DNA of 63,823 bases, filler included, from an uncultured Methanosarcinales archaeon (GTDB lineage: Archaea; Nanobdellota; Nanobdellia; Woesearchaeales; CAYNLP01): the NCBI GenBank assembly GCA_964398115.1. It is 4 parts of 4 records of this genome, joined end to end, with 100 filler letters (N's around TTAATTAATTAA, not from the genome) between each part and the next. Parts side by side here need not be neighbours in the genome. Positions count along the whole stretch, not along the records: positions 43,704 to 63,823 come from CAYNLP010000016.1; 3 more parts are not named here. One strand, given 5' to 3'. The position numbers and the translations under genes are program-made. This document shows, in pieces, positions 4,435 through 63,779 of this stretch (position 1 is the stretch's first letter; each line of letters starts with the position of its first letter). A model generated the notes under the pieces. It was given only the letters and a program-made list of their open reading frames with translations. It did no database searches and was not told where the DNA came from.

Positions 4435-4534
4435 NNNNNNNNNNNNNNNNNNNNNNNNNNNNNNNNNNNNNNNNNNNNTTAATTAATTAANNNNNNNNNN
4501 NNNNNNNNNNNNNNNNNNNNNNNNNNNNNNNNNN
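4435..4534. other. Artificial contig linker
   Basis: N run, TTAATTAATTAA, N run; 100 nt. Confidence 0.99.
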
Positions 4535-11544: not shown

Positions 11545-11644
11545 NNNNNNNNNNNNNNNNNNNNNNNNNNNNNNNNNNNNNNNNNNNNTTAATTAATTAA
11601 NNNNNNNNNNNNNNNNNNNNNNNNNNNNNNNNNNNNNNNNNNNN
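11545..11644. other. Artificial contig linker
   Basis: N run with TTAATTAATTAA. Confidence 0.99.
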
Positions 11645-12284
11645 CGTAATGGTGGTAAAGACAAGTGAGTTTATCCCAACACTCATCCCCTCTAATTTTA
11701 ATCAGGCCAGCGCCGAGATGTACTTTAAACGCTAGCAGTCTGAAAAGCCATATTACAAGAGTTGGCGGAGGATCTTCAGGGAATGGTTCGAAATTCCAGA
11801 ATGGGACAAGAAACATTGCTAAGAATCCTGTTTCCAAAAGTTGTATCTCCCATCCGTAACTATACCATCTTTGCCCTACATTGACAAAGGAAAGATAGAT
11901 GAACCAGTTTAAGAAGAGTAAAGGAACGTTAGCATATCCAAAAAGTAAAAGGAGTGAAAGGACTATTCCAAAAATGGCGAGGGCTATCAATGCAGTGTCT
12001 GAAATGTGAAACCAGAAAACAGTTGGGATTTCAAGAAAAGCAGAAAATGTGCTTCCAAAATTTCCACTAACTCTTTGCAAAAAGTCTTCAACAGGTAAAA
12101 CACCATTGCTTCCAAGTAAAGGTATCACTTGAAAAGCAAGGCTTACAAACGCGAACAAGTATGTCAATCCTAAAAAGCGTAAAAGTACGAATCGTACAAG
12201 CCAGTACTTGCTAGACTGTTTTTCAAAATACGCATCCATGCTTTCCAGCTTGTCAACCAACCAACTCCAATATTTCTCTACCAC
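11645..12284 (-). CDS. Lipase maturation factor (LMF1) family protein, truncated by contig end
   Basis: LRFLGLTYLFAFVSL..Q..PL.G.NG.LP, YLSFVNVGQ.WYSYGWE.QLLETGFL, GAGLIKIRGD.CW.L..L.HHY. Confidence 0.9.
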
Positions 12285-25117: not shown

Positions 25118-25849
25118 CTAACTTTCAAATTCGCAATTTTGTCCTTGGACATGCTCTACATAGCAGATGTCGGCGTTTTCTCCACATCCTAAGCCATTAT
25201 AGGCTCTAAGTGCTCTGTTCCAACCTTCGTATTGTTTGTAATGCTGTCTGTAGTCGGTGTAGTCGTAGTTGTCTATTTGTTTGTAATTGTCCGCGTCACA
25301 GTGACTGTTGATTTTGCTGTGATATTCGCTTTCACTCCAACTAGTTGCTTGTTCGTGTTTATCTTTTAATATTGCCAGGCCGCATTTGATGTTTTGTGTT
25401 TTATTCTTTAAGTCTGCGTCTGGGCAGATTGATTCTGCCGTGTCAGGATTTATTTGCATTATCCCGTATGACAATCCGCTACTTACCACGTTTCCTTCTG
25501 AATTGCAGTGCCTCATATTGCTTTCTTGCTGTGCAAGGTCTCGGACTAAAGGCCATGGAAGTTGTCTCGTAGGGGGGAGATCGCTGTTGAATTCTTCAGT
25601 TAGGGTTTGTAATTTTTGTTGGTTTTCGTCTTGAGTGTCGTCTCTATATGCTTGGGGGCACGGCCATGTTTCTCCTGGTTGGTTTTCTTTGTTGGTAACT
25701 CCTAGCAAAGTGTCTTTAAAACTCGCAACTAGTCCTTTTCCGGTATCTCTTGTAGGGATAACAACTGATTTTAGTACTATCACTGTTATAGCTGCTACTA
25801 TGAAGAGTGTGAGTATCGTACGCCAGGTTATTTGTCCTTTTTTCATCAT
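25118..25849 (-). CDS. Pilin-like-signal protein with soluble lytic transglycosylase (SLT/GH23-like) domain
   Basis: Likely start MMKKG|QITW at 25849; SLT motifs QQESN (catalytic Glu), YGIMQI, NIKCG..IL, ALRAYNG. Confidence 0.88.
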   Translation of the reverse strand: MMKKGQITWRTILTLFIVAAITVIVLKSVVIPTRDTGKGLVASFKDTLLGVTNKENQPGETWPCPQAYRDDTQDENQQKLQTLTEEFNSDLPPTRQLPWPLVRDLAQQESNMRHCNSEGNVVSSGLSYGIMQINPDTAESICPDADLKNKTQNIKCGLAILKDKHEQATSWSESEYHSKINSHCDADNYKQIDNYDYTDYRQHYKQYEGWNRALRAYNGLGCGENADICYVEHVQGQNCEFES

Positions 25850-25980
25850 CCGAAAATCATTTCTAGTGTTGAAGTTCCTGTTTCTGACCAGACTTGTTGT
25901 AGTGTAAGCCATACGACGAGTACGAGTGTGGCTATTATGATTGCTATGAGGACCTGTTTGCTTATTCCTTTTTTATGCAT
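25846..25980 (-). CDS. 44-aa minimal pilin (not in ORF track)
   Basis: MHKKG|ISKQVLIAIIIATLVLVVWLTLQQVWSETGTSTLEMIFG; AGGAG SD; stop overlaps the SLT start. Confidence 0.8.
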   Translation of the reverse strand: MHKKGISKQVLIAIIIATLVLVVWLTLQQVWSETGTSTLEMIFG

Positions 25981-43603: not shown

Positions 43604-43703
43604 NNNNNNNNNNNNNNNNNNNNNNNNNNNNNNNNNNNNNNNNNNNNTTAATTAATTAANNNNNNNNNNNNNNNNNNNNNNNNNNNNNNNNNNNNNNNNN
43701 NNN
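43604..43703. other. Artificial contig linker
   Basis: N run with TTAATTAATTAA. Confidence 0.99.
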
Positions 43704-43927: not shown

Positions 43928-44416
43928 ATGGAGTATGAACGTTCGGGGTTGGGAGTTTTAGTTACAACCTTATTAGTTGGCGTCACGGCTTGTTCAAACG
44001 GGGAACACCAAGACTATATAGAGGGCACGGTCGTGGGAGAATTCGGAAGCGTCCACAACCAAGTTGAAAATAATTCTCAAATTCGCAACGATTCAACAGA
44101 GCAAAAAAGTTACGGGTTGAAAGTAAGGACGGACAGTGCAAGATATGTTTTAGAAATCACAAGCAGCATTCAAGACTACAAAGGAAATCTAATTCACAAC
44201 CATACACCTCGAGATAGAGGAAGAACACTACTGGGACTAGCCGCGTCTATCGAACCCGGAACGAAGATAAAATTTCCCACCAAGTACGTAGGAGAAAATA
44301 AACAAATAAAGTTATTCGGTAAAGACAAGATAGGAATAGTCGCAAACAAAACATTAGACATAATCCGATACGCGCATGAAAGAAACGATGAAAAAGAATT
44401 CGCCACCCCCGACTAA
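43928..44416 (+). CDS. Putative lipoprotein
   Basis: LLVGVTAC lipobox-like signal. Confidence 0.6.
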   Translation: MEYERSGLGVLVTTLLVGVTACSNGEHQDYIEGTVVGEFGSVHNQVENNSQIRNDSTEQKSYGLKVRTDSARYVLEITSSIQDYKGNLIHNHTPRDRGRTLLGLAASIEPGTKIKFPTKYVGENKQIKLFGKDKIGIVANKTLDIIRYAHERNDEKEFATPD

Positions 44417-44467
44417 AAATTTCAAGAGAGAAAACCATTTAAACCACGACTTCCTCTACCCACTAAT

Positions 44468-44779
44468 ATGTTAGACCTGATAGGAAGAAGAGAAAGAGCA
44501 ACACCACTAGATTTTTACAAACAACTAAGCAAAGTAGACTACAAACCCGTAAATCAAGTAATACAAGAACTTGAATACAGAGGATACAAAGCCCAACACT
44601 TAAGAGGAAGCCTAGCACAAAGTTCTATACAAAATTGGTTACACACTTGGGAAAGAGACGGCTACGTAGAACCAAAAATGGTCGAAACCGAAGACGGCGA
44701 AGACTTTGCTTGGAAAAGAACAAAAAACTTAGAAACTTTAACAGAACAAGAACTCCTAAAAGCAATGTCTCCCTTATAA
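44468..44779 (+). CDS. Hypothetical protein, possibly winged helix
   Basis: SIQNWLHTWERDGYVE...AWKRT; TTTAAA about 25 nt upstream. Confidence 0.5.
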   Translation: MLDLIGRRERATPLDFYKQLSKVDYKPVNQVIQELEYRGYKAQHLRGSLAQSSIQNWLHTWERDGYVEPKMVETEDGEDFAWKRTKNLETLTEQELLKAMSPL

Positions 44780-44834
44780 AAAGAGACAAAAAACTATATT
44801 CTTAAAACGCTTTTCGAACTTTAATTATTCTAAA

Positions 44835-45293
44835 ATGCTAAAGCTTAAAAATGAAGTATTGATATGGAACAATCCGATGAAAACGCCACAAGGAAATTAT
44901 CCACTACTGGAATTGAAAGAAAAAGCAATGTCAGAGGTCTATAACCTCGTTTATAGCATTGTACAATATAAGTGTACAGAGGAAGGTATACAACGTTTCG
45001 AAGACGAGTTAGAAAAGCAAGAAAATCAACTGGAGAAACACGCTCGCCTAACACGATGGGGAAACAAAGAAAAGCAAGAAAATTTCATACGAGAAAGTTT
45101 AGAATACATGCTTAAACCAGCCTTGAGAGATTTATGGATACATGGTAACTCTCCACACCCCAGTACGTACATAGATGCTTGGATCGACGACTTAAACAGA
45201 AAATATCGTAAAAAGCTCAAAAAACACTTAGACAACTTCAACATACAAGTGCCCGAAGAACTTCTCAACTACTCGAATGATTTACATGTCTAA
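44835..45293 (+). CDS. Hypothetical protein
   Basis: 152-aa ORF with host-like codon bias. Confidence 0.55.
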   Translation: MLKLKNEVLIWNNPMKTPQGNYPLLELKEKAMSEVYNLVYSIVQYKCTEEGIQRFEDELEKQENQLEKHARLTRWGNKEKQENFIRESLEYMLKPALRDLWIHGNSPHPSTYIDAWIDDLNRKYRKKLKKHLDNFNIQVPEELLNYSNDLHV

Positions 45294-47030
45294 GCTTAAA
45301 GTAGCGCTTGCAACGATAGGATAATCCATCTTGCTTTCTTCCTGAACCGCGATGATATTTCTTTGACCCAAGGCTCGAGCAGCGTTCACCAAACTCGCTT
45401 TAACCTCCAACGGGCCAAAATCTTTAGACCCGTAACCGCTAAGGATGAAGTGCTCATCCAAACTCACCAAATTATCACGGCTTTCAGGAAAGTGAGGTTC
45501 CAACCTGTAAACACCTTGCACACCCACTTTGTAGCCTTCGTGTTCAAAACCACCCGTGGCTTTCAAAGTAACTTCGCTAAGACCAGGAACGGGCTTTCTC
45601 TCTCCTTTCCACGTCATCTTCATATCACGATACGCAAAGCTCCCACTCCAAAAAGCATTGTCACTCAACCCTTTATAAGTTAAATGAAAGCTCTCCCCAT
45701 CCACCTCGGCGCCTTGATAAAAACGAGGCAAGTTACCATTTAAGGACTTAACAAAACCTTCCACTTTATGATCACCCAAGTTCAAAACCACGCCAGGCTT
45801 CACATAACTAACTCGTTGAGAAGAAACATCCTCATGGTTTTGAAACTTCAAACTACCTCCCAAGCGATCATCCAAGAAGGGGTCGTAAAGGTCAGCAGCG
45901 CTCAACTTCAAAGTAAAGTCTCCCAACATTTTAGAAACGCTTCCGTAAACTGACAAGTCTTCTTCGCCATCCACGAAATGCAAGGAAGCATTGCCACGCA
46001 CCAAGAAATCTAATGGTAATGACTGGGTATGGTCAGCGAACAATTCAACATCTGAGAAGCTTTTCACATCATCTCCTAACTCTTTATATAAGTGACTAAC
46101 CACTAAACCAACATCTCCCCGGCCATAATCCAAACGCGTATTGTTAGTAACAAAATCTAAACTTTGCTTCAACCACTCCCTACTATCATCATACTTCATT
46201 TCACTAGTCACGTCACCACTTTGAAAACTAAAATCATTCTCTAACGTGAAACCCCTCACGTCTTTATCAAATGAAGCAACCACGAATTCTTGACTCGTCT
46301 CCTCCAAATACTTTTTCATATCAAACGCTTTAGATAAATCTGCGGTGATGTCAGAATGGCCAACATGAACGTCTAAACTCCAAGTACTGTCTTGCACTCC
46401 CCCAATTGCTAAGCCTCGAAAGCCGTCTCCAAAAGCACCCGTTGCGCCATTTCCAATAAAATCAGGCGTGAACAGGTAATCCATGTTAACACCAACCTTG
46501 TAACTTTCTGTTTTTCTTCCAAAACTGGCACTCGTCCTTCTAGGCTCTGCATGAACGTGTAAGCCTTCATCCAAATCAGAAGTTATAATAACAGGACGAT
46601 CCAAAGCGGGATGGGAAGCGTCGGGTTCTTCTGGTTCAACCGACAAGTGATTGCTAGGCCAAGTACTTCTTAACCCCATGCTAACCTTGTCTTTTAACAA
46701 CATTCTCAAATCGTTATAGAATTTAGTATTAGCCAAAGGTATGTCTTGAAAACTGGTTTTAGACTCTCCCGGGAGTAATGTGTGAGAACTCGCATCTCTG
46801 TAAAGGACTTGTTGAAAAGCGTCGCCACTGCTAAAACTTTCAGTGATTCGGTCATCCACGTCTTCTGCTTCTGCATTTACAACAATATCATCAATCGTGT
46901 GCTCGGGTCGTGGTGTAGAATCTTGCGGGATTGAGTCAGGAGTAGCTTGTTGAGCTTTCATAGGCGTAGCCAGTGACAGTAAGGCCATCACTGCCCCCGT
47001 TGTTGACACTGTCCTGTCATTCAACCCCAT
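45282..47030 (-). CDS. TonB-dependent-receptor-like beta-barrel protein (divergent)
   Basis: Signal peptide ending KA|QQ, TonB-box-like TIDDIVVNA, plug-like segment, many alternating beta strands, terminal LEVKASLVN...ASATLSLDM. Confidence 0.55.
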   Translation of the reverse strand: MGLNDRTVSTTGAVMALLSLATPMKAQQATPDSIPQDSTPRPEHTIDDIVVNAEAEDVDDRITESFSSGDAFQQVLYRDASSHTLLPGESKTSFQDIPLANTKFYNDLRMLLKDKVSMGLRSTWPSNHLSVEPEEPDASHPALDRPVIITSDLDEGLHVHAEPRRTSASFGRKTESYKVGVNMDYLFTPDFIGNGATGAFGDGFRGLAIGGVQDSTWSLDVHVGHSDITADLSKAFDMKKYLEETSQEFVVASFDKDVRGFTLENDFSFQSGDVTSEMKYDDSREWLKQSLDFVTNNTRLDYGRGDVGLVVSHLYKELGDDVKSFSDVELFADHTQSLPLDFLVRGNASLHFVDGEEDLSVYGSVSKMLGDFTLKLSAADLYDPFLDDRLGGSLKFQNHEDVSSQRVSYVKPGVVLNLGDHKVEGFVKSLNGNLPRFYQGAEVDGESFHLTYKGLSDNAFWSGSFAYRDMKMTWKGERKPVPGLSEVTLKATGGFEHEGYKVGVQGVYRLEPHFPESRDNLVSLDEHFILSGYGSKDFGPLEVKASLVNAARALGQRNIIAVQEESKMDYPIVASATLSLDM

Positions 47031-47286
47031 ATTCGTTGCGAGGAATTGCTAACTTATTAAATTTTTCTTTTTCTTATCACTCAAAAGTAGTTTAGAAATA
47101 ACTATTAATGTTAAGATATTTCATGGTAGAAGCTCCGAAAACAAAAAATAATTATTATCCATATAAACATAAAACCTGTTCTCTTCGAAACTACCCCCTT
47201 AAAAAAAGACGCAACCACACTCAACAACAAACACTACAAAGCCATCAAAGAACGCCTCAAAGAAAAAAATAAAAACTAACGCTAAC

Positions 47287-48285
47287 CTACCACCGACTAC
47301 CAACATGATGATGCTTCAACTTCTGACTAACCAAAAACACAAATAGAACAAAACCAACATACAACAACATCAAACTACCATAACCCAAACCAACATCCTT
47401 AATCAAATCCACAACCGTCACAGTCAACCAAGACGCAACCGAAACCGAACCCGACAAAGACAACAAAAGATTATCCATAGGCCTAACAACATCAATACTC
47501 TTATCCCTCACACTCTCAACCAACTTCTCAACCACTGGACCGCTCAAGAAAACACCATTAACAATAATGATTCCAATAACGGTCTGCATAAACCTAAACT
47601 TAGCCGTGTTCGCCACCACATTATGAAAAATGAAATACACACTCACAAACTCAATCGCCAACCCCAACCAAACACCCTTACTTACATCATGAAAAGTAGG
47701 ATAAATAACCTGCTCGTGAATATCCGAACGCTTCGTCAACAAGAACAAGAAATCCAAAATCAAAACAGTACCTACTGTCAACACGCTATGGAATCCATGA
47801 CCCATAAAGAAAATCTGCTCCGAACTAAAACTACCCTCCCAAACAGGGAAACTAATCAAAACCGCAGCTAACGAAAACAAGAAAGCATAAAACCAAACAA
47901 TCTCATCACCAACCTCCTGCATGTGCTGACGCCAATACCAAACAATGCCAAGATAACCAAGAACAAACAAGAAAAAAACCGGAGACAAAACAACAAAAGC
48001 CTGCTCACTAGCAGCCAAGCTCGGAACCATAGTAATCCCCTCATGCGCCATAACACTATACGAGAAGAAACCATCAATACCAATCCAACTCAAAGTAGTC
48101 AAGAAAACACCAAGAGTCAAAGGACTCATCATCTCACGACTAGTCTCCATAAAAACCTCCTTCTCATCCCCCGACTCCCCCCGTTGCCGCCAATAAAAAT
48201 AAATACCCCACAAACAACTAGCACCAGCAAGTGCCAAACCAACCTGCTTCAAAATCGACAACACTTCAAAAACAGTTACCATCAT
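47287..48285 (-). CDS. Polytopic membrane protein
   Basis: About nine hydrophobic helices; GHGFHS motif. Confidence 0.65.
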   Translation of the reverse strand: MMVTVFEVLSILKQVGLALAGASCLWGIYFYWRQRGESGDEKEVFMETSREMMSPLTLGVFLTTLSWIGIDGFFSYSVMAHEGITMVPSLAASEQAFVVLSPVFFLFVLGYLGIVWYWRQHMQEVGDEIVWFYAFLFSLAAVLISFPVWEGSFSSEQIFFMGHGFHSVLTVGTVLILDFLFLLTKRSDIHEQVIYPTFHDVSKGVWLGLAIEFVSVYFIFHNVVANTAKFRFMQTVIGIIIVNGVFLSGPVVEKLVESVRDKSIDVVRPMDNLLLSLSGSVSVASWLTVTVVDLIKDVGLGYGSLMLLYVGFVLFVFLVSQKLKHHHVGSRW

Positions 48286-48491
48286 TTATCCACCCAATAC
48301 AAAACCATACCAACAACGTATAAACCATGACTAAAAAACCAGTAACTAAAATCTCCAGTCCAAAAAGTAGGAACTCCAGCAAGTATCAAAACACCTGAAA
48401 TTAACAAAACAATCCAGCTCAACTTCCAATCATCAACCATTATATCTAAAATATATCCTAACCACTCCTTATTAACACTTACGATTACCAA
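48282..48491 (-). CDS. Small membrane protein
   Basis: Two hydrophobic segments; overlaps the next gene; start uncertain. Confidence 0.5.
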   Translation of the reverse strand: MVIVSVNKEWLGYILDIMVDDWKLSWIVLLISGVLILAGVPTFWTGDFSYWFFSHGLYVVGMVLYWVDK

Positions 48492-48602
48492 AAAATTGTA
48501 AGAAAAAAATGGTGTCGTCTTTTTTCCTTACCAATCAAACTTGATTTCTCCCTCTTTTATAAAATTTCAAGGATAGCTAAGAATTAAAGTGTAAAGAAAT
48601 CG

Positions 48603-50288
48603 TTAACGGATGATATTTCCTAGTATCATGTTCCAAAAACCACCGTCGTCTGATTCCTGCTCCACATCCTCCCGTTCTATTTTCTCCGGTACTTGCTTTC
48701 CTGCTTGTTGGAGCCTATTCCTCAATTCTTCGTTTCTCTCTTCCAACTTGTCTATGTAGGTAGTCTGTTCTTCCAATTCTTGTTGCAGATCGGGACACTG
48801 TTTGGATTGTCCTGTTATCAACTTGCAACCTCGAAGACCTCTCTTCACGTGTTTAATCCTCTTCTGTATCTCTTGATCTTCTTTCTCTTTCACTTCACTT
48901 TCTTTTAACTCTTTTTTATATCGGTACAGAGTATAATTGAGATAACCGCACTTCGTTGATAACATTTCCTGCCTTTTCTTACACACTTCCAAGTCTTCTT
49001 CAAGATCACTTATCATCTCATCTGCCTTTTCGATTTCTCCCTCGCGTTGCTTAAAGAATTCAAGTTTCTTCTGTATAATTTCACACTCGCTCCCATTCAC
49101 TTCTTTTTTCCTCTTACACCATTCACTCTCCATCTCTATCTCTGATATCTTTGACTCAACTTCGTTTATCTCTTTCTTTATATCCATCTTTTGATCTTCA
49201 GGTGCTTGTTTCAGCCTTTCCTTTAGTTGAGATAATCTGTTCTTTTCTCGTTCCGCAATAGATTCCATCCTAGTGCAATCATCATTTTGTGATTGAATCC
49301 TTTGCACTTCTTCTTTTGTTCTTCCTTGGCACTCGGCTAAGCGCCGTCTGAGATTTCTAATTTTTGACTTTACTTCTTCTAGTTCCTTCTGGGATTGTTC
49401 ATCTCCTCGCTCTACAGACTCTTTCAACTTATCTCTTTTTCTGGTAAGTTCTCGCATTTGTCTTGCAAGTTTTTCGCAATCTTTGTTTTTTTCTGACCTT
49501 CTTATACCTGCGCATTCTTTGTGTTTCTGGATGGCTTGTTGTAATTTTTGCTGAAGTTCTTCTTCTTTTTCTGAACCTTTCGGCACTTCTTCTAGTTTTT
49601 GTTCTATGCTGTTCACGTTTTCAAGCAGATTTTTACACCTTCTTTTCTCATCTGATTCTTCTGACTTGCACCTTTCTAGGTTTTCCTTTTTCTGCTCTAT
49701 CTCTTTCTGGATGGATTTTCTTTTCTCTGATTCCGTTTCGGGCAGAATTTCTAATCTCTTTTTCATGTACTTAATATCGTGTTGTATACGAGCGCATTCA
49801 CCTTCTGGCTTTGTTTCACGTTTTTCTTTCTCTAGTCTGCATTCCTTTAAGTTTTGCCTCAATCGTTCGATGCCTTCTCTAGCTTCTCGCATTTCTTCTT
49901 CGGTAACCTCTGAGTTATTCTTGGCGTCTTTTAGCTTCTGCTTCGTTTCTTTGAGTCGTTGGGCTATGCTTTCGCACATTTCAGTTTCTGACTTTTCAAC
50001 AGTGGTGGCGACGGCTATAGAAGTAGCGTTTTTTTCTTCGCACATTTTGAGATAGTTTTTGAACCTTTGCAGTTTATCTTTAATCACTTCTAATTCTTGT
50101 TTTAGATCTTCTCCTGCTTCTTCATCATATTCTATAGTATCATTAAGAAGTTCTTTCTTGTCTTCCAGTTCTTTCACTTGGGAACGTAGGTCTTGACAAT
50201 TATATGTAGTTTCTTCCTGGGAAATAACGGAAGGAGAAATGATGAGAATCCATAGGAAAATGGTGAATGGGAGTATTCTCTTCATCAC
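48603..50288 (-). CDS. Secreted coiled-coil protein with Cys-bracketed repeats
   Basis: Signal peptide; eight C..(L/I)...L..C helical units; C-terminal GGFWNMILGNIIR. Confidence 0.75.
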   Translation of the reverse strand: MMKRILPFTIFLWILIISPSVISQEETTYNCQDLRSQVKELEDKKELLNDTIEYDEEAGEDLKQELEVIKDKLQRFKNYLKMCEEKNATSIAVATTVEKSETEMCESIAQRLKETKQKLKDAKNNSEVTEEEMREAREGIERLRQNLKECRLEKEKRETKPEGECARIQHDIKYMKKRLEILPETESEKRKSIQKEIEQKKENLERCKSEESDEKRRCKNLLENVNSIEQKLEEVPKGSEKEEELQQKLQQAIQKHKECAGIRRSEKNKDCEKLARQMRELTRKRDKLKESVERGDEQSQKELEEVKSKIRNLRRRLAECQGRTKEEVQRIQSQNDDCTRMESIAEREKNRLSQLKERLKQAPEDQKMDIKKEINEVESKISEIEMESEWCKRKKEVNGSECEIIQKKLEFFKQREGEIEKADEMISDLEEDLEVCKKRQEMLSTKCGYLNYTLYRYKKELKESEVKEKEDQEIQKRIKHVKRGLRGCKLITGQSKQCPDLQQELEEQTTYIDKLEERNEELRNRLQQAGKQVPEKIEREDVEQESDDGGFWNMILGNIIR

Positions 50289-56084: not shown

Positions 56085-56284
56085 CTTGTTGGATAGAAAC
56101 GTGACATTCTTTATATTATTTACGTCTTTAGAGTAGCCAAGTTTTAATAATTTAAACTCTGAAATTCCTTTATTGTCTGTAAGTTAAGTAATTGAAAGAA
56201 TTTTTTACTATAAAGTAACAAATAATTTATAAACTGTTTTAAAGCGTAAAAAAATCGCCCACTATCTATAACCCCTGAAGGGGA

Positions 56285-56357
56285 TAGCCCCACCCAGATT
56301 CGAACTGGGGTCGCGCGGCCCAAAACCGCGCATGATTGGCCGCTACACTATGGGGCT
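56285..56357 (-). tRNA. tRNA-Gln(TTG)
   Basis: AGCCCCA/TGGGGCT acceptor stem, CGCGG-TT TTG GG-CCGCG anticodon arm, TTCGAAT T-loop; no encoded CCA. Confidence 0.95.
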
Positions 56358-56409
56358 ATATCAACCTCTAAACATATAGAATTCTCAACTGCTTTTTAAC
56401 ACTTTCCAT

Positions 56410-56685: not shown

Positions 56686-56746
56686 ACACAGAGAAATAGT
56701 TAATATAACAATATTTAAATCTAATGTTTCCACAATTTAAGAATTG

Positions 56747-58042
56747 ATGAAAAACAAAACCTGGATATTAATAATCCTATTACTAGCCCTAACCGTAAGG
56801 ATATATCCACTACAAAACTACACAGAATGGGATGAAAGCATCTACCTACAACACGCCGAATACATAGACGAAGGAAAAAACAACTACAACGAATGGCAAT
56901 TAAGACCCCCGCTGGTAAGCATCTTGATAGCCGAGGCATGGCAAGTATGGGATCACATATACGCAGCACAAATACTCATAAACATCTTAGCCGCGCTCAT
57001 AGTAATACCCATATACTATATAGGAAAGAAACTACACAGCAAGAAAGCCGGACAATTCTCAAGCCTACTCGTCGCAATCTATCCCCTATTTGTAAGAAAC
57101 GGACACATGATCCTCACAGACAGCATACTAGCCACCTTCCTAGCCACCACACTCCTACTAACACTTAAGCAAGAAAAAACCAGGTCTTTAATAGCAGGAC
57201 TAATAGGAGGCTTGGCAATACTCACCAAATTCACAGCACTCGCACCACTAGCAATACTAGGACTCTACCACTACTGGAAAGAACGGAAAAAACTACCTAA
57301 GAAAACCCTCCTCTACACAATAGGAACACTAATACCTGTCATTCCCTACCTAGCGTGGAACCAAAAAATGTTCGGCAACATGCTACAACCATTCATCCAA
57401 AGCGCAAGAGTAGCAAGCACCGCAGGAAGCCAACAATGGATATATCCTGTCCTAACGATACCCCTAATGCTAGGCCTAGCACTTTACACCTGGCAAAGCA
57501 AAAAAGACCGAGAATACCTCACCATCGCAACCCTATGGACTGTAACAGTAACTCTCGGCGTGATAACAATACACATAGAACCACGATACCTCATACCCGC
57601 CGTCCTACCATTCATACCACTAGCAGGAATAGGATACACCGACACGACAGAAAAACTAAAATGGAAACACGCCACCACCACCGCCATAGCTTTAATAACA
57701 ATATTCAGCCTACCCGCATTTACCTACTTCCAATACAACCCAACAGTCAATTGGAAGACACCCACGATAAAAGCAACCGAATACATAAACCAAAACAACA
57801 TTACCGAAAAGATATGCGCGACAAAAGACTATCCCGTCTATGCATACTACACACAAAACAAAATAAACGTAGTAGACGGCCCTCACTTCGAAGAATACTA
57901 TCCACAAATACTACGAGGAAGTTGCATCCTAACAGTATACAAAAACAGAGATCAAATCCCAACAATAAGCTGGGCAGATCAACAACCACGCCTCCAAGAG
58001 ATATACGAAAACGAAAAACTAAAGCTATACCGCTACCACTGA
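56747..58042 (+). CDS. GT-C fold glycosyltransferase (ArnT/PMT, GT39/83-like)
   Basis: WDESIY, RPPL, GLAILTKFT, EPRYLIP; about 11 TMs. Confidence 0.88.
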   Translation: MKNKTWILIILLLALTVRIYPLQNYTEWDESIYLQHAEYIDEGKNNYNEWQLRPPLVSILIAEAWQVWDHIYAAQILINILAALIVIPIYYIGKKLHSKKAGQFSSLLVAIYPLFVRNGHMILTDSILATFLATTLLLTLKQEKTRSLIAGLIGGLAILTKFTALAPLAILGLYHYWKERKKLPKKTLLYTIGTLIPVIPYLAWNQKMFGNMLQPFIQSARVASTAGSQQWIYPVLTIPLMLGLALYTWQSKKDREYLTIATLWTVTVTLGVITIHIEPRYLIPAVLPFIPLAGIGYTDTTEKLKWKHATTTAIALITIFSLPAFTYFQYNPTVNWKTPTIKATEYINQNNITEKICATKDYPVYAYYTQNKINVVDGPHFEEYYPQILRGSCILTVYKNRDQIPTISWADQQPRLQEIYENEKLKLYRYH

Positions 58043-58089
58043 TAAAAAAATAAATATTTTTAAATACCACAGGGTTTTTGTAGCTACTA

Positions 58090-58827
58090 ATGGGTTGGAA
58101 AACATTTGTAAGGAATAGACTACTAGAAAGCGCGTCCGAACACAGAAGAAATGGAGATACAGGATTAACCTACCACGCTAAAATGGCAGCATTATCTTCT
58201 TTCGCTGGCGCCGGACAAGTACTCCCCAAATGGCAAGAAGAATTTGCAGATATTCTAGGAGTAGCAAAAGATGAATTCACCCAATACGACGTATACGTCG
58301 GAACCCTACTAGGAAACGTTATCAATGCATCAGCAGCGGCAGGAATAAAAGAAGACGGATGGTTTGTAGGACAAGCCGCAGATTACCTCCACACCCAAAC
58401 CGGAGTACCAGTAGATGAAGCTAGTAACGCAATACTCCTAGGACTAAGCATTTGGGGAACAACAACCAACTTTTACCGTATGTGCCACAACATCGAAACA
58501 CGAAAACCCTCCCCCGCCGTAGGACCCCTAGCAGCGATGAAAAACGTTCCATGGGGTGTATACCAAGCAGGAAAGAAAATATTCGAAAACCTCCCTGAAT
58601 CCACACAAGAAAATATAAGAAAATTCTGGGAAGAAGGAAACTTAGAAGCCCGAGTAGCAAAATCATACCACAAATCAAGAGTTAGAGAACTTAAAGCAGA
58701 AACAACCGCCCACCTAAAATACACCAAAGAATGGACAGGCAAAAAACTAAGAGAAATAGCAGAAGGAACAGACACATACATAGACCTAGCATACCACGCC
58801 GTCGAAGCAAGCTTTCGTAAACATTAA
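58090..58827 (+). CDS. Hypothetical protein
   Basis: 245-aa ORF; TTTTAAAT upstream. Confidence 0.6.
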   Translation: MGWKTFVRNRLLESASEHRRNGDTGLTYHAKMAALSSFAGAGQVLPKWQEEFADILGVAKDEFTQYDVYVGTLLGNVINASAAAGIKEDGWFVGQAADYLHTQTGVPVDEASNAILLGLSIWGTTTNFYRMCHNIETRKPSPAVGPLAAMKNVPWGVYQAGKKIFENLPESTQENIRKFWEEGNLEARVAKSYHKSRVRELKAETTAHLKYTKEWTGKKLREIAEGTDTYIDLAYHAVEASFRKH

Positions 58828-58854
58828 ATAAAACAACATCATCCCAAAACAACG

Positions 58855-60918
58855 ATGAAGATAAATTCTGTCGAACTCAAAAACATCAGATCGTACGACC
58901 ACGAAAAAGTTGAATTCCCTGAAGGAACAGTACTCCTAAGCGGGGACATAGGAAGCGGAAAAAGCAGCATCCTACTAGCAATTGAATTCGCAATCTTCGG
59001 CATCAAAAGAGGAAGTCTACCAGGCACCGCCCTCCTAAGACATGGAGAAAAACACGGCTGGGTAAAACTAAACTTCACACTTGAACACAAAGACGTAACC
59101 ATCTACAGAAGCCTCGAAAGAACCAAAGATTCAGTTACGCAAGACAACGGATACATCACCATCGATGGCAAAAAATTCGAAGGAACCCCCACAGAACTAA
59201 AAGCCAAAATAATAGACATGCTAGGATATCCAAAAGAACTAGTAACCAAATCCAAAAGCCTCATCTACCGCTACACGGTCTACACACCACAAGAAGCTAT
59301 GAAACAAATCCTCATGGAAGGCGACGATCAACGCCTAGACACCCTAAGAAAAATATTCAACATCGATAAATACAAAAGAATAAAAGAAAACGCAGCACTC
59401 CTCGCCAGAGACTTAAGAAGCGACAAGAAAATCTACAAAAAAAGAATAGAAGACCTAGACGATACTAAAGAAAAACTAGACAACAAAAAAACCGAATTAA
59501 AACAAAACAAAGAAGACCTAGAAGATATAAAAGACGACATAGACAAAATCGAAGAAAAAGTAGAAAACGCGAAAGAAAAAGTAGAAGAAATAGAAAAACA
59601 AAACCAACGAAGAAACAAAGCCGAAAAACAATACGAACTCGCAAAAAACAACCTAGACAACAAAAAAGAAAAACTAGAAACAAACCAAGAACAACAAGAA
59701 AAACTCAAACAACAAATCAAACAAATCAAAAAAGAACTAGAAGACAAAGGCATAGAAAAACTCGACAAAATCGAAAAACAAATCGAACAAAAAGAAAAAC
59801 AAATACAACAATTAGAAGACAAAATAAGCCAAGTAAAACAAAAAGAAGCTAAAAGAAAAACACAGAAAGAACAAGCAAAAGAAATCAAACAAAAAATAAC
59901 AAACATGGACGAATGCCCTGTATGCAAACAAAAAGTAACACAAGAACACAAACAAGACGTGAAAAAAGAACAAAAAGAAAAAATCAAAGACATCAACCAA
60001 CGATTACAAAAAGCAAAAGTAGCCAAGAAAAAAATTTCAGACAAAATAGATACACAAAAAGAAAACCTCGAAAAATTAAGAAAAAAAGAAAAAGAACTAG
60101 CCAGTATCAAAGAAAAACAAAAACGCCTAGAAGAAAAACAAGAAAACTTCACCGAATTAGAAAAGGAACAAGAAAACATTCAAGACGCCATTTCTGACTT
60201 GAAAGAAAGCATAGACGAATGGAAAAACCAATTAGAAGAAACCGAAGACTTATCCGACAAGTTAGAAAAAGCAAAAGAACGACACAAAAAACTCAGAAAC
60301 AAAATAAACGATAAAAAAATGGAAAAAACCCGTCTAGAAACAGAAATCAAAAACTTAAACGAAAACATCGAAGACTTGGAAGAAAGCGTAGAAGAAATGA
60401 AACAATCCAAAGAAAAACTCGACAAAATAAAAGAAACCCTAGAATGGATCGACGAATACTTCGTCAAAGTCATGGACGTCATGGAAAAACAAGTAATGCT
60501 AAGAATATACAACGAATTCAACGAATACTTCATCGAATGGTTCAACACACTAATGGAAGACGAAAGCGTTAACGTACGCTTAGACGAACAATTCGCACCC
60601 GTAATAGTACAAGACGGATACGAAACCACCATAGAAAACCTAAGCGGAGGAGAAAGAACCAGCGTAGCACTAGCATACCGACTAAGCTTAAACAAAGTAA
60701 TAAACGACTTTGTAGGAACTATCAAAACCAAAAATCTCATAATCCTTGACGAACCAACCGACGGGTTCAGCAACGACCAACTAGACAAAGTAAGAGACGT
60801 ACTACAACAACTAGACATAAACCAAGTAATTGTAGTAAGCCACGAAGCCAAAATGGAAACTTATGTAGACAACATAATAGAAATAGCCAAGCAAAACAAC
60901 AAGAGCAGGATTGTGTAA
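58855..60918 (+). CDS. Rad50/SbcC-like SMC ATPase
   Basis: L.NIRSY, GDIGSGKSS, Q-loop, zinc hook CPVC, LSGGE, LIILDEPT, VSH. Confidence 0.92.
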   Translation: MKINSVELKNIRSYDHEKVEFPEGTVLLSGDIGSGKSSILLAIEFAIFGIKRGSLPGTALLRHGEKHGWVKLNFTLEHKDVTIYRSLERTKDSVTQDNGYITIDGKKFEGTPTELKAKIIDMLGYPKELVTKSKSLIYRYTVYTPQEAMKQILMEGDDQRLDTLRKIFNIDKYKRIKENAALLARDLRSDKKIYKKRIEDLDDTKEKLDNKKTELKQNKEDLEDIKDDIDKIEEKVENAKEKVEEIEKQNQRRNKAEKQYELAKNNLDNKKEKLETNQEQQEKLKQQIKQIKKELEDKGIEKLDKIEKQIEQKEKQIQQLEDKISQVKQKEAKRKTQKEQAKEIKQKITNMDECPVCKQKVTQEHKQDVKKEQKEKIKDINQRLQKAKVAKKKISDKIDTQKENLEKLRKKEKELASIKEKQKRLEEKQENFTELEKEQENIQDAISDLKESIDEWKNQLEETEDLSDKLEKAKERHKKLRNKINDKKMEKTRLETEIKNLNENIEDLEESVEEMKQSKEKLDKIKETLEWIDEYFVKVMDVMEKQVMLRIYNEFNEYFIEWFNTLMEDESVNVRLDEQFAPVIVQDGYETTIENLSGGERTSVALAYRLSLNKVINDFVGTIKTKNLIILDEPTDGFSNDQLDKVRDVLQQLDINQVIVVSHEAKMETYVDNIIEIAKQNNKSRIV

Positions 60919-63707: not shown

Positions 63708-63779
63708 CCCTCCATAGCTCAACGGAAGAGCACTCGGCTGTAGACCGAGGTGTTCCAGGTTCAAATCCTGGTGGGGGGA
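63708..63779 (+). tRNA. tRNA-Tyr(GTA), intronless
   Basis: C1:G72 acceptor CCCTCCA/TGGGGGG; CTCGG-CT GTA GA-CCGAG; TTCAAAT; TTTATAAA promoter at 63671. Confidence 0.95.

Follow-up and report, generated by a model that had tools for sequence, protein, structure and literature searches.

Beta-barrel outer-membrane proteins, and TonB-dependent transporters (TBDTs) especially, are regarded as characteristic of diderm bacteria and their organelles. In structure, TBDTs are recognized by a 22-stranded barrel with an N-terminal plug, and in sequence by matches to Plug (PF07715), TonB_dep_Rec_b-barrel (PF00593) or the NCBIfam TBDT models; in an alignment of BtuB, FhuA and FepA, the TonB boxes of Escherichia coli read DT[IL][TV]VTA. 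Archaea are not known to make plugged outer-membrane barrels of this kind. Here we describe a gene in a 63,823-nt stretch of DNA (the window) from the archaeal genome assembly GCA_964398115.1, whose 582-aa product (P0001) is predicted with good confidence to adopt the plugged-barrel fold of the TBDTs. The barrel and the plug are present at the level of the predicted structure only; none of the sequence models named above matches the protein.

The window is made up of four pieces, each from a different contig of a binned genome, and the gene sits on the last of these (43704-63823; 20,120 bp), inside which there is not a single N and whose length agrees exactly with the longest contig entered for P0001 in the protein database. 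The open reading frame (ORF), on the minus strand, starts with ATG, ends with a stop codon at 45284-45282 and constitutes a complete coding sequence, with the following features:

45282..47030, minus strand: P0001 coding sequence, TonB-dependent-transporter-like protein (ORF call; fold prediction)
47054..47061, minus strand: TATA-like box TTTAATAA, -31 to -24 from the ATG (leaderless-type archaeal promoter arrangement)
46953..47030, minus strand: residues 1-26, Sec-type signal-peptide-like N-terminus (hydrophobic stretch 12-21, then KA-QQ)
46872..46901, minus strand: residues 44-53, HTIDDIVVNA, TonB-box-like motif (low-confidence flexible N-terminal segment)
46593..46853, minus strand: residues ~60-146, short plug-like domain with a PG motif (P87 G88) (model and alignment)
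45285..46592, minus strand: residues 147-582, predicted beta-barrel domain of ~22 long antiparallel strands (DSSP on the model)

Predicted fold and sequence family

An exhaustive HMMER search of 1.84 billion representatives found 13 relatives of P0001 (E 3e-35 to 3.6e-06), which are 21-26% identical to it, the best being 26% identical, and 12 of which are full length (573-741 aa). The alignment used throughout (A1) has 13 rows, P0001 and the 12 full-length relatives, the 158-aa fragment P0014 having been excluded beforehand. Its near-invariant columns are P87, G88, D144, G171, G201, G203, D231, D351, L381, D383, R468, P482, E488, P515 and P571. From A1, AlphaFold2 produced a model with a mean predicted local distance difference test score (pLDDT) of 82.3 and a predicted template modelling score (pTM) of 0.82, in which residues 1-59 are disordered, residues ~60-146 form a small mixed alpha/beta region and long antiparallel strands follow up to the C-terminus. 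The plug-like region contains helices at 56-67 and 71-78 together with short strands (10-residue block-mean pLDDT 62-91), and its PG motif occurs in 11 of the 13 aligned sequences. After residue 140, DSSP assigns 22 strands of at least six residues, five shorter elements being left uncounted, and on 17 of the 22 the mean hydropathy of one alternating face exceeds 1.0, which is what a lipid-facing wall would be expected to show.

Comparison of the AlphaFold2 model with the PDB by Foldseek returned TBDTs in all 50 top rows (TM score by query 0.59-0.66; structural identity 8-13%), with E-values of 1e-13 to 1e-16 across more than 520 columns. The best match is BtuB (1nqg; E 6.5e-16, TM score 0.65 by query and 0.66 by target, 546 columns, 11% identity), and because the aligned length exceeds the barrel alone, the plug would be seated within the barrel. 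For the relative P0002, the ESM Atlas provides an independent model (pTM 0.73), whose structural neighbours are TBDT clusters at TM scores of 0.81-0.83, and the language-model features of the Atlas lead to TBDT-type clusters for both P0001 (0.92-0.93) and P0002 (0.94). The preliminary description of this locus had proposed a plugged beta-barrel with alternating hydrophobic and polar strands, to be checked by structure prediction and Foldseek, and the model bears it out on both counts.

The N-terminus of P0001, MGLNDRTVSTTGAVMALLSLATPMKA followed by QQ, suggests a Sec-type signal peptide, and in its hydrophobic stretch at residues 12-21 the highest Kyte-Doolittle mean over 10 aa is 2.2; this is weaker than in most other secreted proteins of the window (2.5-4.4). 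The dipeptide AQ appears at residues 19-34 in 11 of the 13 aligned sequences, and AQ after a signal peptide recalls the Q-rule of Bacteroidetes/Bacteroidota treated in a part of PMC5837995. As a clue to a bacterial donor, we rejected this rule as uninformative, since other secreted proteins in the window share a Gln at the predicted +1 position: the products of 32499 (VYA-QT), 34918 (VTS-QE) and 48603 (VIS-QE) read like P0001 (MKA-QQ). The TonB-box-like motif TIDDIVVNA occupies residues 45-53 and lies before the plug, within the disordered segment in which pLDDT stays below 50 (residues 1-59); its hydrophobic positions I46, I49 and V51 are kept in all 13 aligned sequences. In the relative P0003 (741 aa), an N-terminal extension of ~200 aa carries a second motif of this type (VVLPPVIVEAN as well as VEISGIVVEAN). 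PGESKTSFQDIPL spans residues 87-99 and ASATLSLDM forms the C-terminus, so that every sequence feature listed at first inspection, from the KA-QQ start to the last strand, is present in the protein. P0001 contains no cysteine and is acidic (net charge -36). Its acidity was considered as a sign of foreign or halophilic origin and rejected as not distinctive, as P0001 has -6.2 charges per 100 aa, compared with a window median of -2.9 and -6.9 for GlmS.

Other searches returned few sequences. A word-indexed search of 5.8 billion clusters found the query alone, both with P0001 and with the profile of A1, and PDB sequences gave only noise with P0001 (E>0.2). Pattern scans of 185,579 species-representative genomes produced 33 matches with P0001 alone and 14 with an alignment of P0005, P0007 and P0001, and in neither case was a locus confirmed. 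The relative P0004 finds only itself in the word-indexed search and is a singleton 'hypothetical protein' on a 5,243-bp contig from the Joint Genome Institute. P0001 belongs to a rare, extremely divergent TBDT-like family that curated sequence models do not detect.

Archaeal character of the contig and neighbouring genes

The contig that carries the P0001 gene looks archaeal and the gene native to it, on the basis of a tRNA, an ATPase, promoters and composition. The tRNA-Tyr at 63708-63779 has 72 nt, begins with C1, which pairs with G72, and has no variable arm. According to the relevant part of PMC5370408, bacterial tRNA-Tyr has G1-C72 and a variable arm, and the archaeal and eukaryal molecule C1-G72 without this arm; as an archaeal marker it is strong, though not absolute. 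A 687-aa ATPase at 58855-60918 matches archaeal Rad50 best (1e-59), followed by an archaea-specific SMC-related protein (3.8e-50); neither match reaches the curated cut-off. The clearest archaeal markers of the window, RadA (Rad51 4.6e-85 plus HHH_5) and an RPA-like protein with an OB-fold, are on piece 3 and not on the contig of P0001. The source is probably a DPANN archaeon of Woese/Pacearchaeota type.

Upstream of the P0001 gene, the TATA box reads TTTAATAA (47061-47054), and no Shine-Dalgarno-like sequence occurs between it and the ATG. Of the 32 genes preceded by 45 nt or more of intergenic DNA, 13 have a TATA-like hexamer that starts between -34 and -28, whereas each of eight other 7-nt windows gives only one to three. 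The P0001 gene is among the 13 (TTAATA at -30), as are the flanking genes at 43928, 44468, 44835 and 48603. The archaeal TATA box noted earlier stands in a register that is enriched among the genes of the window.

Composition points the same way. At fourfold-degenerate sites of the P0001 gene, read on the plus strand, the AT skew is +0.44 and the GC skew -0.23, which is the direction of all five nearest genes whatever their orientation (A>T and C>G on the plus strand over 43.9-48.5 kb), in agreement with the strand-composition bias first remarked on. The three plus-strand genes to the left have skews of +0.21 to +0.52 (AT) and -0.11 to -0.78 (GC), and the two minus-strand genes to the right +0.45 to +0.81 and -0.90 to -1.00. 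This signature recurs in its extreme form at 56.4-63.8 kb of the same contig, where the genes of 56744-60918 show +0.67 to +0.83 and -0.73 to -0.81, against +0.81 and -0.90 for 47287-48285, and it is mirrored in the genes of the contig with RadA and RPA. The tetranucleotide profile of the 4-kb window 44001-48000 correlates with that of its own contig at 0.936. An archaeal promoter architecture and a host-like composition, as would be looked for in a native gene, are thus both present, and a mis-joined bacterial fragment at this locus is unlikely.

Across all pieces of the window, the strand bias at synonymous sites is independent of gene orientation, with A far above T and C far above G on one strand (skews up to +0.83 and -0.90). 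Two domains, 43.9-48.5 kb and 56.4-63.8 kb, run in one direction and a third, 54.8-55.9 kb, in the opposite one; a bias with such flips suggests a replication-linked mutational asymmetry combined with local inversions. ARAGORN calls a tRNA-Gln(TTG) at 56282-56358 on the minus strand, which stays below the gathering score of the Rfam tRNA model, whereas tRNA-Pro and tRNA-Tyr of the same contig reach it.

Directly upstream of the P0001 gene, and also on the minus strand, lie two overlapping orphan membrane-protein genes, 47287-48285 (332 aa, multi-pass) and 48282-48491 (69 aa), which have the most extreme codon third-position skew of the window (T3 0.51, A3 0.04). These may be analogues of ExbB, ExbD or TonB, an idea against which stand the lack of any family signal for either gene even at E<=1, the gap of 256 bp between the pair and the P0001 gene, and the TATA box that the latter has of its own. 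Upstream of the pair, 48603-50288 (minus strand) encodes a 561-aa secreted protein that is nearly all charged coiled-coil with regularly spaced cysteines and has only weak SMC and coiled-coil matches.

The pieces of the window are joined by three 100-nt spacers, which together hold 264 Ns:

4435-4534, 11545-11644 and 43604-43703: spacers (N-run, TTAATTAATTAA, N-run), artificial joins

ORFs that run across a spacer are artefacts at that end, such as 11589-12284 (minus strand), whose 3' end is inside one.

On piece 3, and hence on a different contig, as first described, lies a wall-lytic pilus locus. It is a long co-oriented block on the minus strand (18149-43544) with a 1230-aa M23 peptidase, large Ig-like surface proteins, an SLT lytic transglycosylase protein (25118-25912) and at least 10 ORFs with the N-terminus M-x-K/R-(K)-G-Q and then a hydrophobic stretch, that is, a class III, type-IV-pilin-like signal. 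The block resembles an archaeal pilus, or an apparatus for adhesion, that has murein-lytic enzymes alongside it, which fits suggestions made in parts of PMC8204110 and PMC12352652 on the interaction of Woese/Pacearchaeota-type DPANN archaea with bacterial walls.

Explanations weighed

On balance, we lean towards the account in which P0001 is an exported, plug-gated barrel of ~22 strands with the TBDT fold, from a divergent family, encoded by an intact, resident archaeal gene with a TATA promoter and a leaderless mRNA. The gene would be transcribed from the archaeal TATA promoter as a leaderless mRNA, and the protein would be exported through Sec and inserted into a lipid bilayer that lies beyond the cytoplasmic membrane. 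There it may act as a gated channel, whose plug would be moved when a partner binds the conserved TonB-box-like strand. The family would descend from bacterial TBDTs and would have reached the lineage by an old transfer from a diderm bacterium; this is the most likely origin, in view of a fold known otherwise from bacteria and a composition that suits the surroundings of the gene. Of the first interpretation of this locus, the fold and the archaeal context have thus stood; acquisition from a Gram-negative partner is not shown, as the searches gave neither a donor nor a close bacterial homologue (best relative 26% identical). Within our account, the bilayer could tentatively be identified with the archaeon's own outer membrane, and the outer membrane of an attached diderm bacterial host is unlikely; the remainder is undecided. 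That the archaeon natively makes and uses a TBDT-type barrel, either in an outer membrane of its own without a known beta-barrel assembly machinery (BAM) or planted in a diderm host, is on the whole doubtful.

A number of results weigh against this account. In sequence, no Pfam or NCBIfam family matches P0001 at E<=10, Plug and TonB_dep_Rec of Pfam have no match at E<=1 among the 13 aligned sequences, and the A1 profile has no match in the PDB. The comparison of A1 by hhalign with an alignment of BtuB, FhuA and FepA (A4, taken from the annotated E. coli K-12 record) is not significant (probability 3.3%, E 0.013), and homology of the family to TBDTs is not established at the sequence level. In structure, the fold rests on predictions from the shallow 13-row alignment, the AlphaFold2 model from the single sequence is unusable (pLDDT 32.4), and the position of the plug inside the barrel was read from the alignment length and not from coordinates. 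P0001 ends in ...ATLSLDM, with Met and not the aromatic residue typical of BAM substrates, and so lacks the usual aromatic end of the beta-signal; across the family, F, W or Y is last in 5 of 13 sequences and an aromatic residue falls within the last four in 10 of 13. Among the 63 ORFs of the window that were scanned, none matched TonB (TonB_C), ExbB (MotA_ExbB), ExbD, BamA/Omp85, POTRA or other outer-membrane biogenesis families, and a permissive scan of the neighbours of P0001 (E<=1) found no TonB, ExbB, ExbD or outer-membrane biogenesis family. As to origin, the contig is part of a metagenome bin, and archaeal tRNA-Tyr identity is also recorded, in the part of PMC5370408 concerned, for some bacteria of the candidate phyla radiation. 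The P0001 gene by itself has a tetranucleotide correlation of 0.66; among 29 size-matched segments the median is 0.85, and four segments are lower than the gene. Finally, the only hints at taxonomy come from look-alike clusters of the ESM Atlas, and those to which taxa are assigned are all bacterial (Fibrobacterota, Spirochaetota, Bacteroidota, Gemmatimonadota and Pseudomonadota); such clusters, which come with neither alignment nor E-value, serve as leads and do not indicate gene transfer.

In the first alternative, which we consider unlikely, the archaeon would secrete the P0001 barrel and insert it as a feeding pore in a Gram-negative host's outer membrane, where it would act together with the wall-lytic pilus locus. 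The same bin does hold the M23 peptidase, the transglycosylase and the pilin-like ORFs of piece 3, P0001 combines an export signal with a predicted TBDT fold, and a part of PMC8204110 proposes attachment to bacterial walls for the large transglycosylase-bearing proteins of Woesearchaeota and Pacearchaeota. We see no link between the two loci, however, which are on separate contigs and share no operon. Moreover, the TonB-box-like motif, kept throughout the alignment, suggests coupling to an energy transducer, which is not obviously needed in a foreign membrane unless the TonB of the host is hijacked. We also know of no precedent for the delivery of a monomeric 22-strand barrel into the outer membrane of another cell.

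Secondly, an assembly or binning error might have brought diderm bacterial DNA into the bin, either as this segment or as the left-hand part of the contig (43.7 to ~50 kb). All seven ORFs from 43928 to 50288, P0001 included, are without a Pfam family above the curated cut-off, so this part lacks a protein marker, and the rather low tetranucleotide correlation of the gene, the bacterial look-alike clusters and the absence of the source genome from the species representatives scanned would also agree with such an error. It is nevertheless quite unlikely: TATA-like hexamers precede five of the seven left-part genes at -30 to -33, in the same register as on the contig with RadA, the skew signature of 47287-48285 equals that of 56744-60918 on the marker-bearing half, the contig has no internal Ns, and not one of the 1.84 billion representatives contains a sequence more than 26% identical to P0001.

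A transferred bacterial gene could also have been retained without a function in an organism that has neither an outer membrane nor BAM. The C-terminal Met, the lack of TonB, ExbBD and BAM genes in the window, and the lack of close relatives from which purifying selection could be shown would be in keeping with this. Against it, the frame of 582 aa has no interruption and can be aligned from one end to the other with relatives of 573-741 aa, the near-invariant columns are kept, and the gene has acquired a promoter of the host type and the local strand bias; as an unselected ORF would rarely survive for so long, we regard the loss of function as improbable. Least of all do we expect P0001 to be a beta-rich secreted surface protein that the predictors forced into a TBDT template, as the shallow alignment, the failed single-sequence model and the non-significant hhalign result might allow, since two predictors agree on two different family members, the Foldseek E-values are low over most of the protein, the strand faces alternate between hydrophobic and polar, and the TonB-box, PG and C-terminal Asn landmarks are colinear with those of real TBDTs.

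If the archaeon does natively make and use the barrel, P0001 would be the first beta-barrel outer-membrane transporter to function for an archaeon. A resident gene with a TBDT fold and archaeal signals raises the questions of how a barrel is folded without BAM and in which membrane it resides, and further whether some ultra-small archaea have outer membranes of bacterial type or manipulate those of bacterial hosts. Since the family is invisible to Pfam and NCBIfam, screening at the level of the fold can find envelope proteins that annotation pipelines miss. Were the contig chimeric, it would still hold a new divergent family of bacterial TBDTs, which would be of modest interest.

Comparison with known systems

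Among archaea, a TBDT-like or other beta-barrel outer-membrane protein was not reported in the titles, abstracts and selected passages of the open-access literature that were searched, which is not proof of absence. To our knowledge, the known outer-membrane pore protein of Ignicoccus is not a beta-barrel. Double membranes are documented, in a part of PMC4243693, for Ignicoccus, ARMAN, SM1/Altiarchaeum and Methanomassiliicoccus, ultra-small archaea included; in what was covered of that article, the word 'barrel' occurs solely in the title of a reference on the assembly of bacterial outer-membrane proteins. The periplasm-like space of such cells could house a protein of the P0001 type, should the organism studied here have a second membrane.

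The genomes of Woese/Pacearchaeota-type archaea or Nanoarchaeia carry typically bacterial genes related to the envelope, according to parts of PMC8204110 and PMC12352652; the terms 'TonB', 'outer membrane' and 'barrel' do not appear in the main text of PMC8204110. The bacterial-type wall genes of DPANN archaea, for murein transglycosylases and M23 peptidases, resemble the P0001 gene in this respect, and the bin described here has both kinds. They differ in that the wall enzymes are soluble or anchored and act on the bacterial wall, whereas a barrel of the TBDT type depends on an outer membrane of lipid and, as a rule, on BAM.

By language-model features, the nearest proteins are unannotated TBDT-like clusters of the ESM Atlas from the FCB group and related bacteria, which are of similar length: a 'hypothetical protein' of Fibrobacterota (566 aa), a 'TonB-dependent receptor-like beta-barrel' of Spirochaetota (637 aa) and Plug clusters of Gemmatimonadota. 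The first two rows for P0001 are likewise without a common Pfam family, and all of these clusters are bacterial, unlike the contig of P0001.

With the TBDTs BtuB, FhuA and FepA, P0001 has a common layout, namely a signal peptide, a flexible TonB-box-like strand, a PG ~40 aa further on, amphipathic strands and an Asn ~30 aa from the C-terminus. It differs from them in having no sequence homology that hidden Markov model or profile-profile comparison can detect, in its short plug of ~90-100 aa, and in being encoded on a contig of archaeal type behind an archaeal promoter, with no TonB, ExbB or ExbD nearby. BtuB is the best structural match. The precursors are of nearly equal size (582 aa for P0001 and 614 aa for BtuB); residue 48 is the first of the TonB-box-like motif in P0001 (DIVVNA), and residue 26 that of the corresponding TonB box in BtuB; the PG stands at 87 in P0001 and the PGV at 70 in BtuB, at motif spacings of 39 and 44 aa; and the invariant N549 of P0001 is 33 aa from the C-terminus, compared with 27 aa from the end for the NLFD of BtuB, on whose asparagine the weak hhalign alignment places N549. 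What was already known is the fold, and what is new is a family outside the curated models and the unexpected domain of its host.

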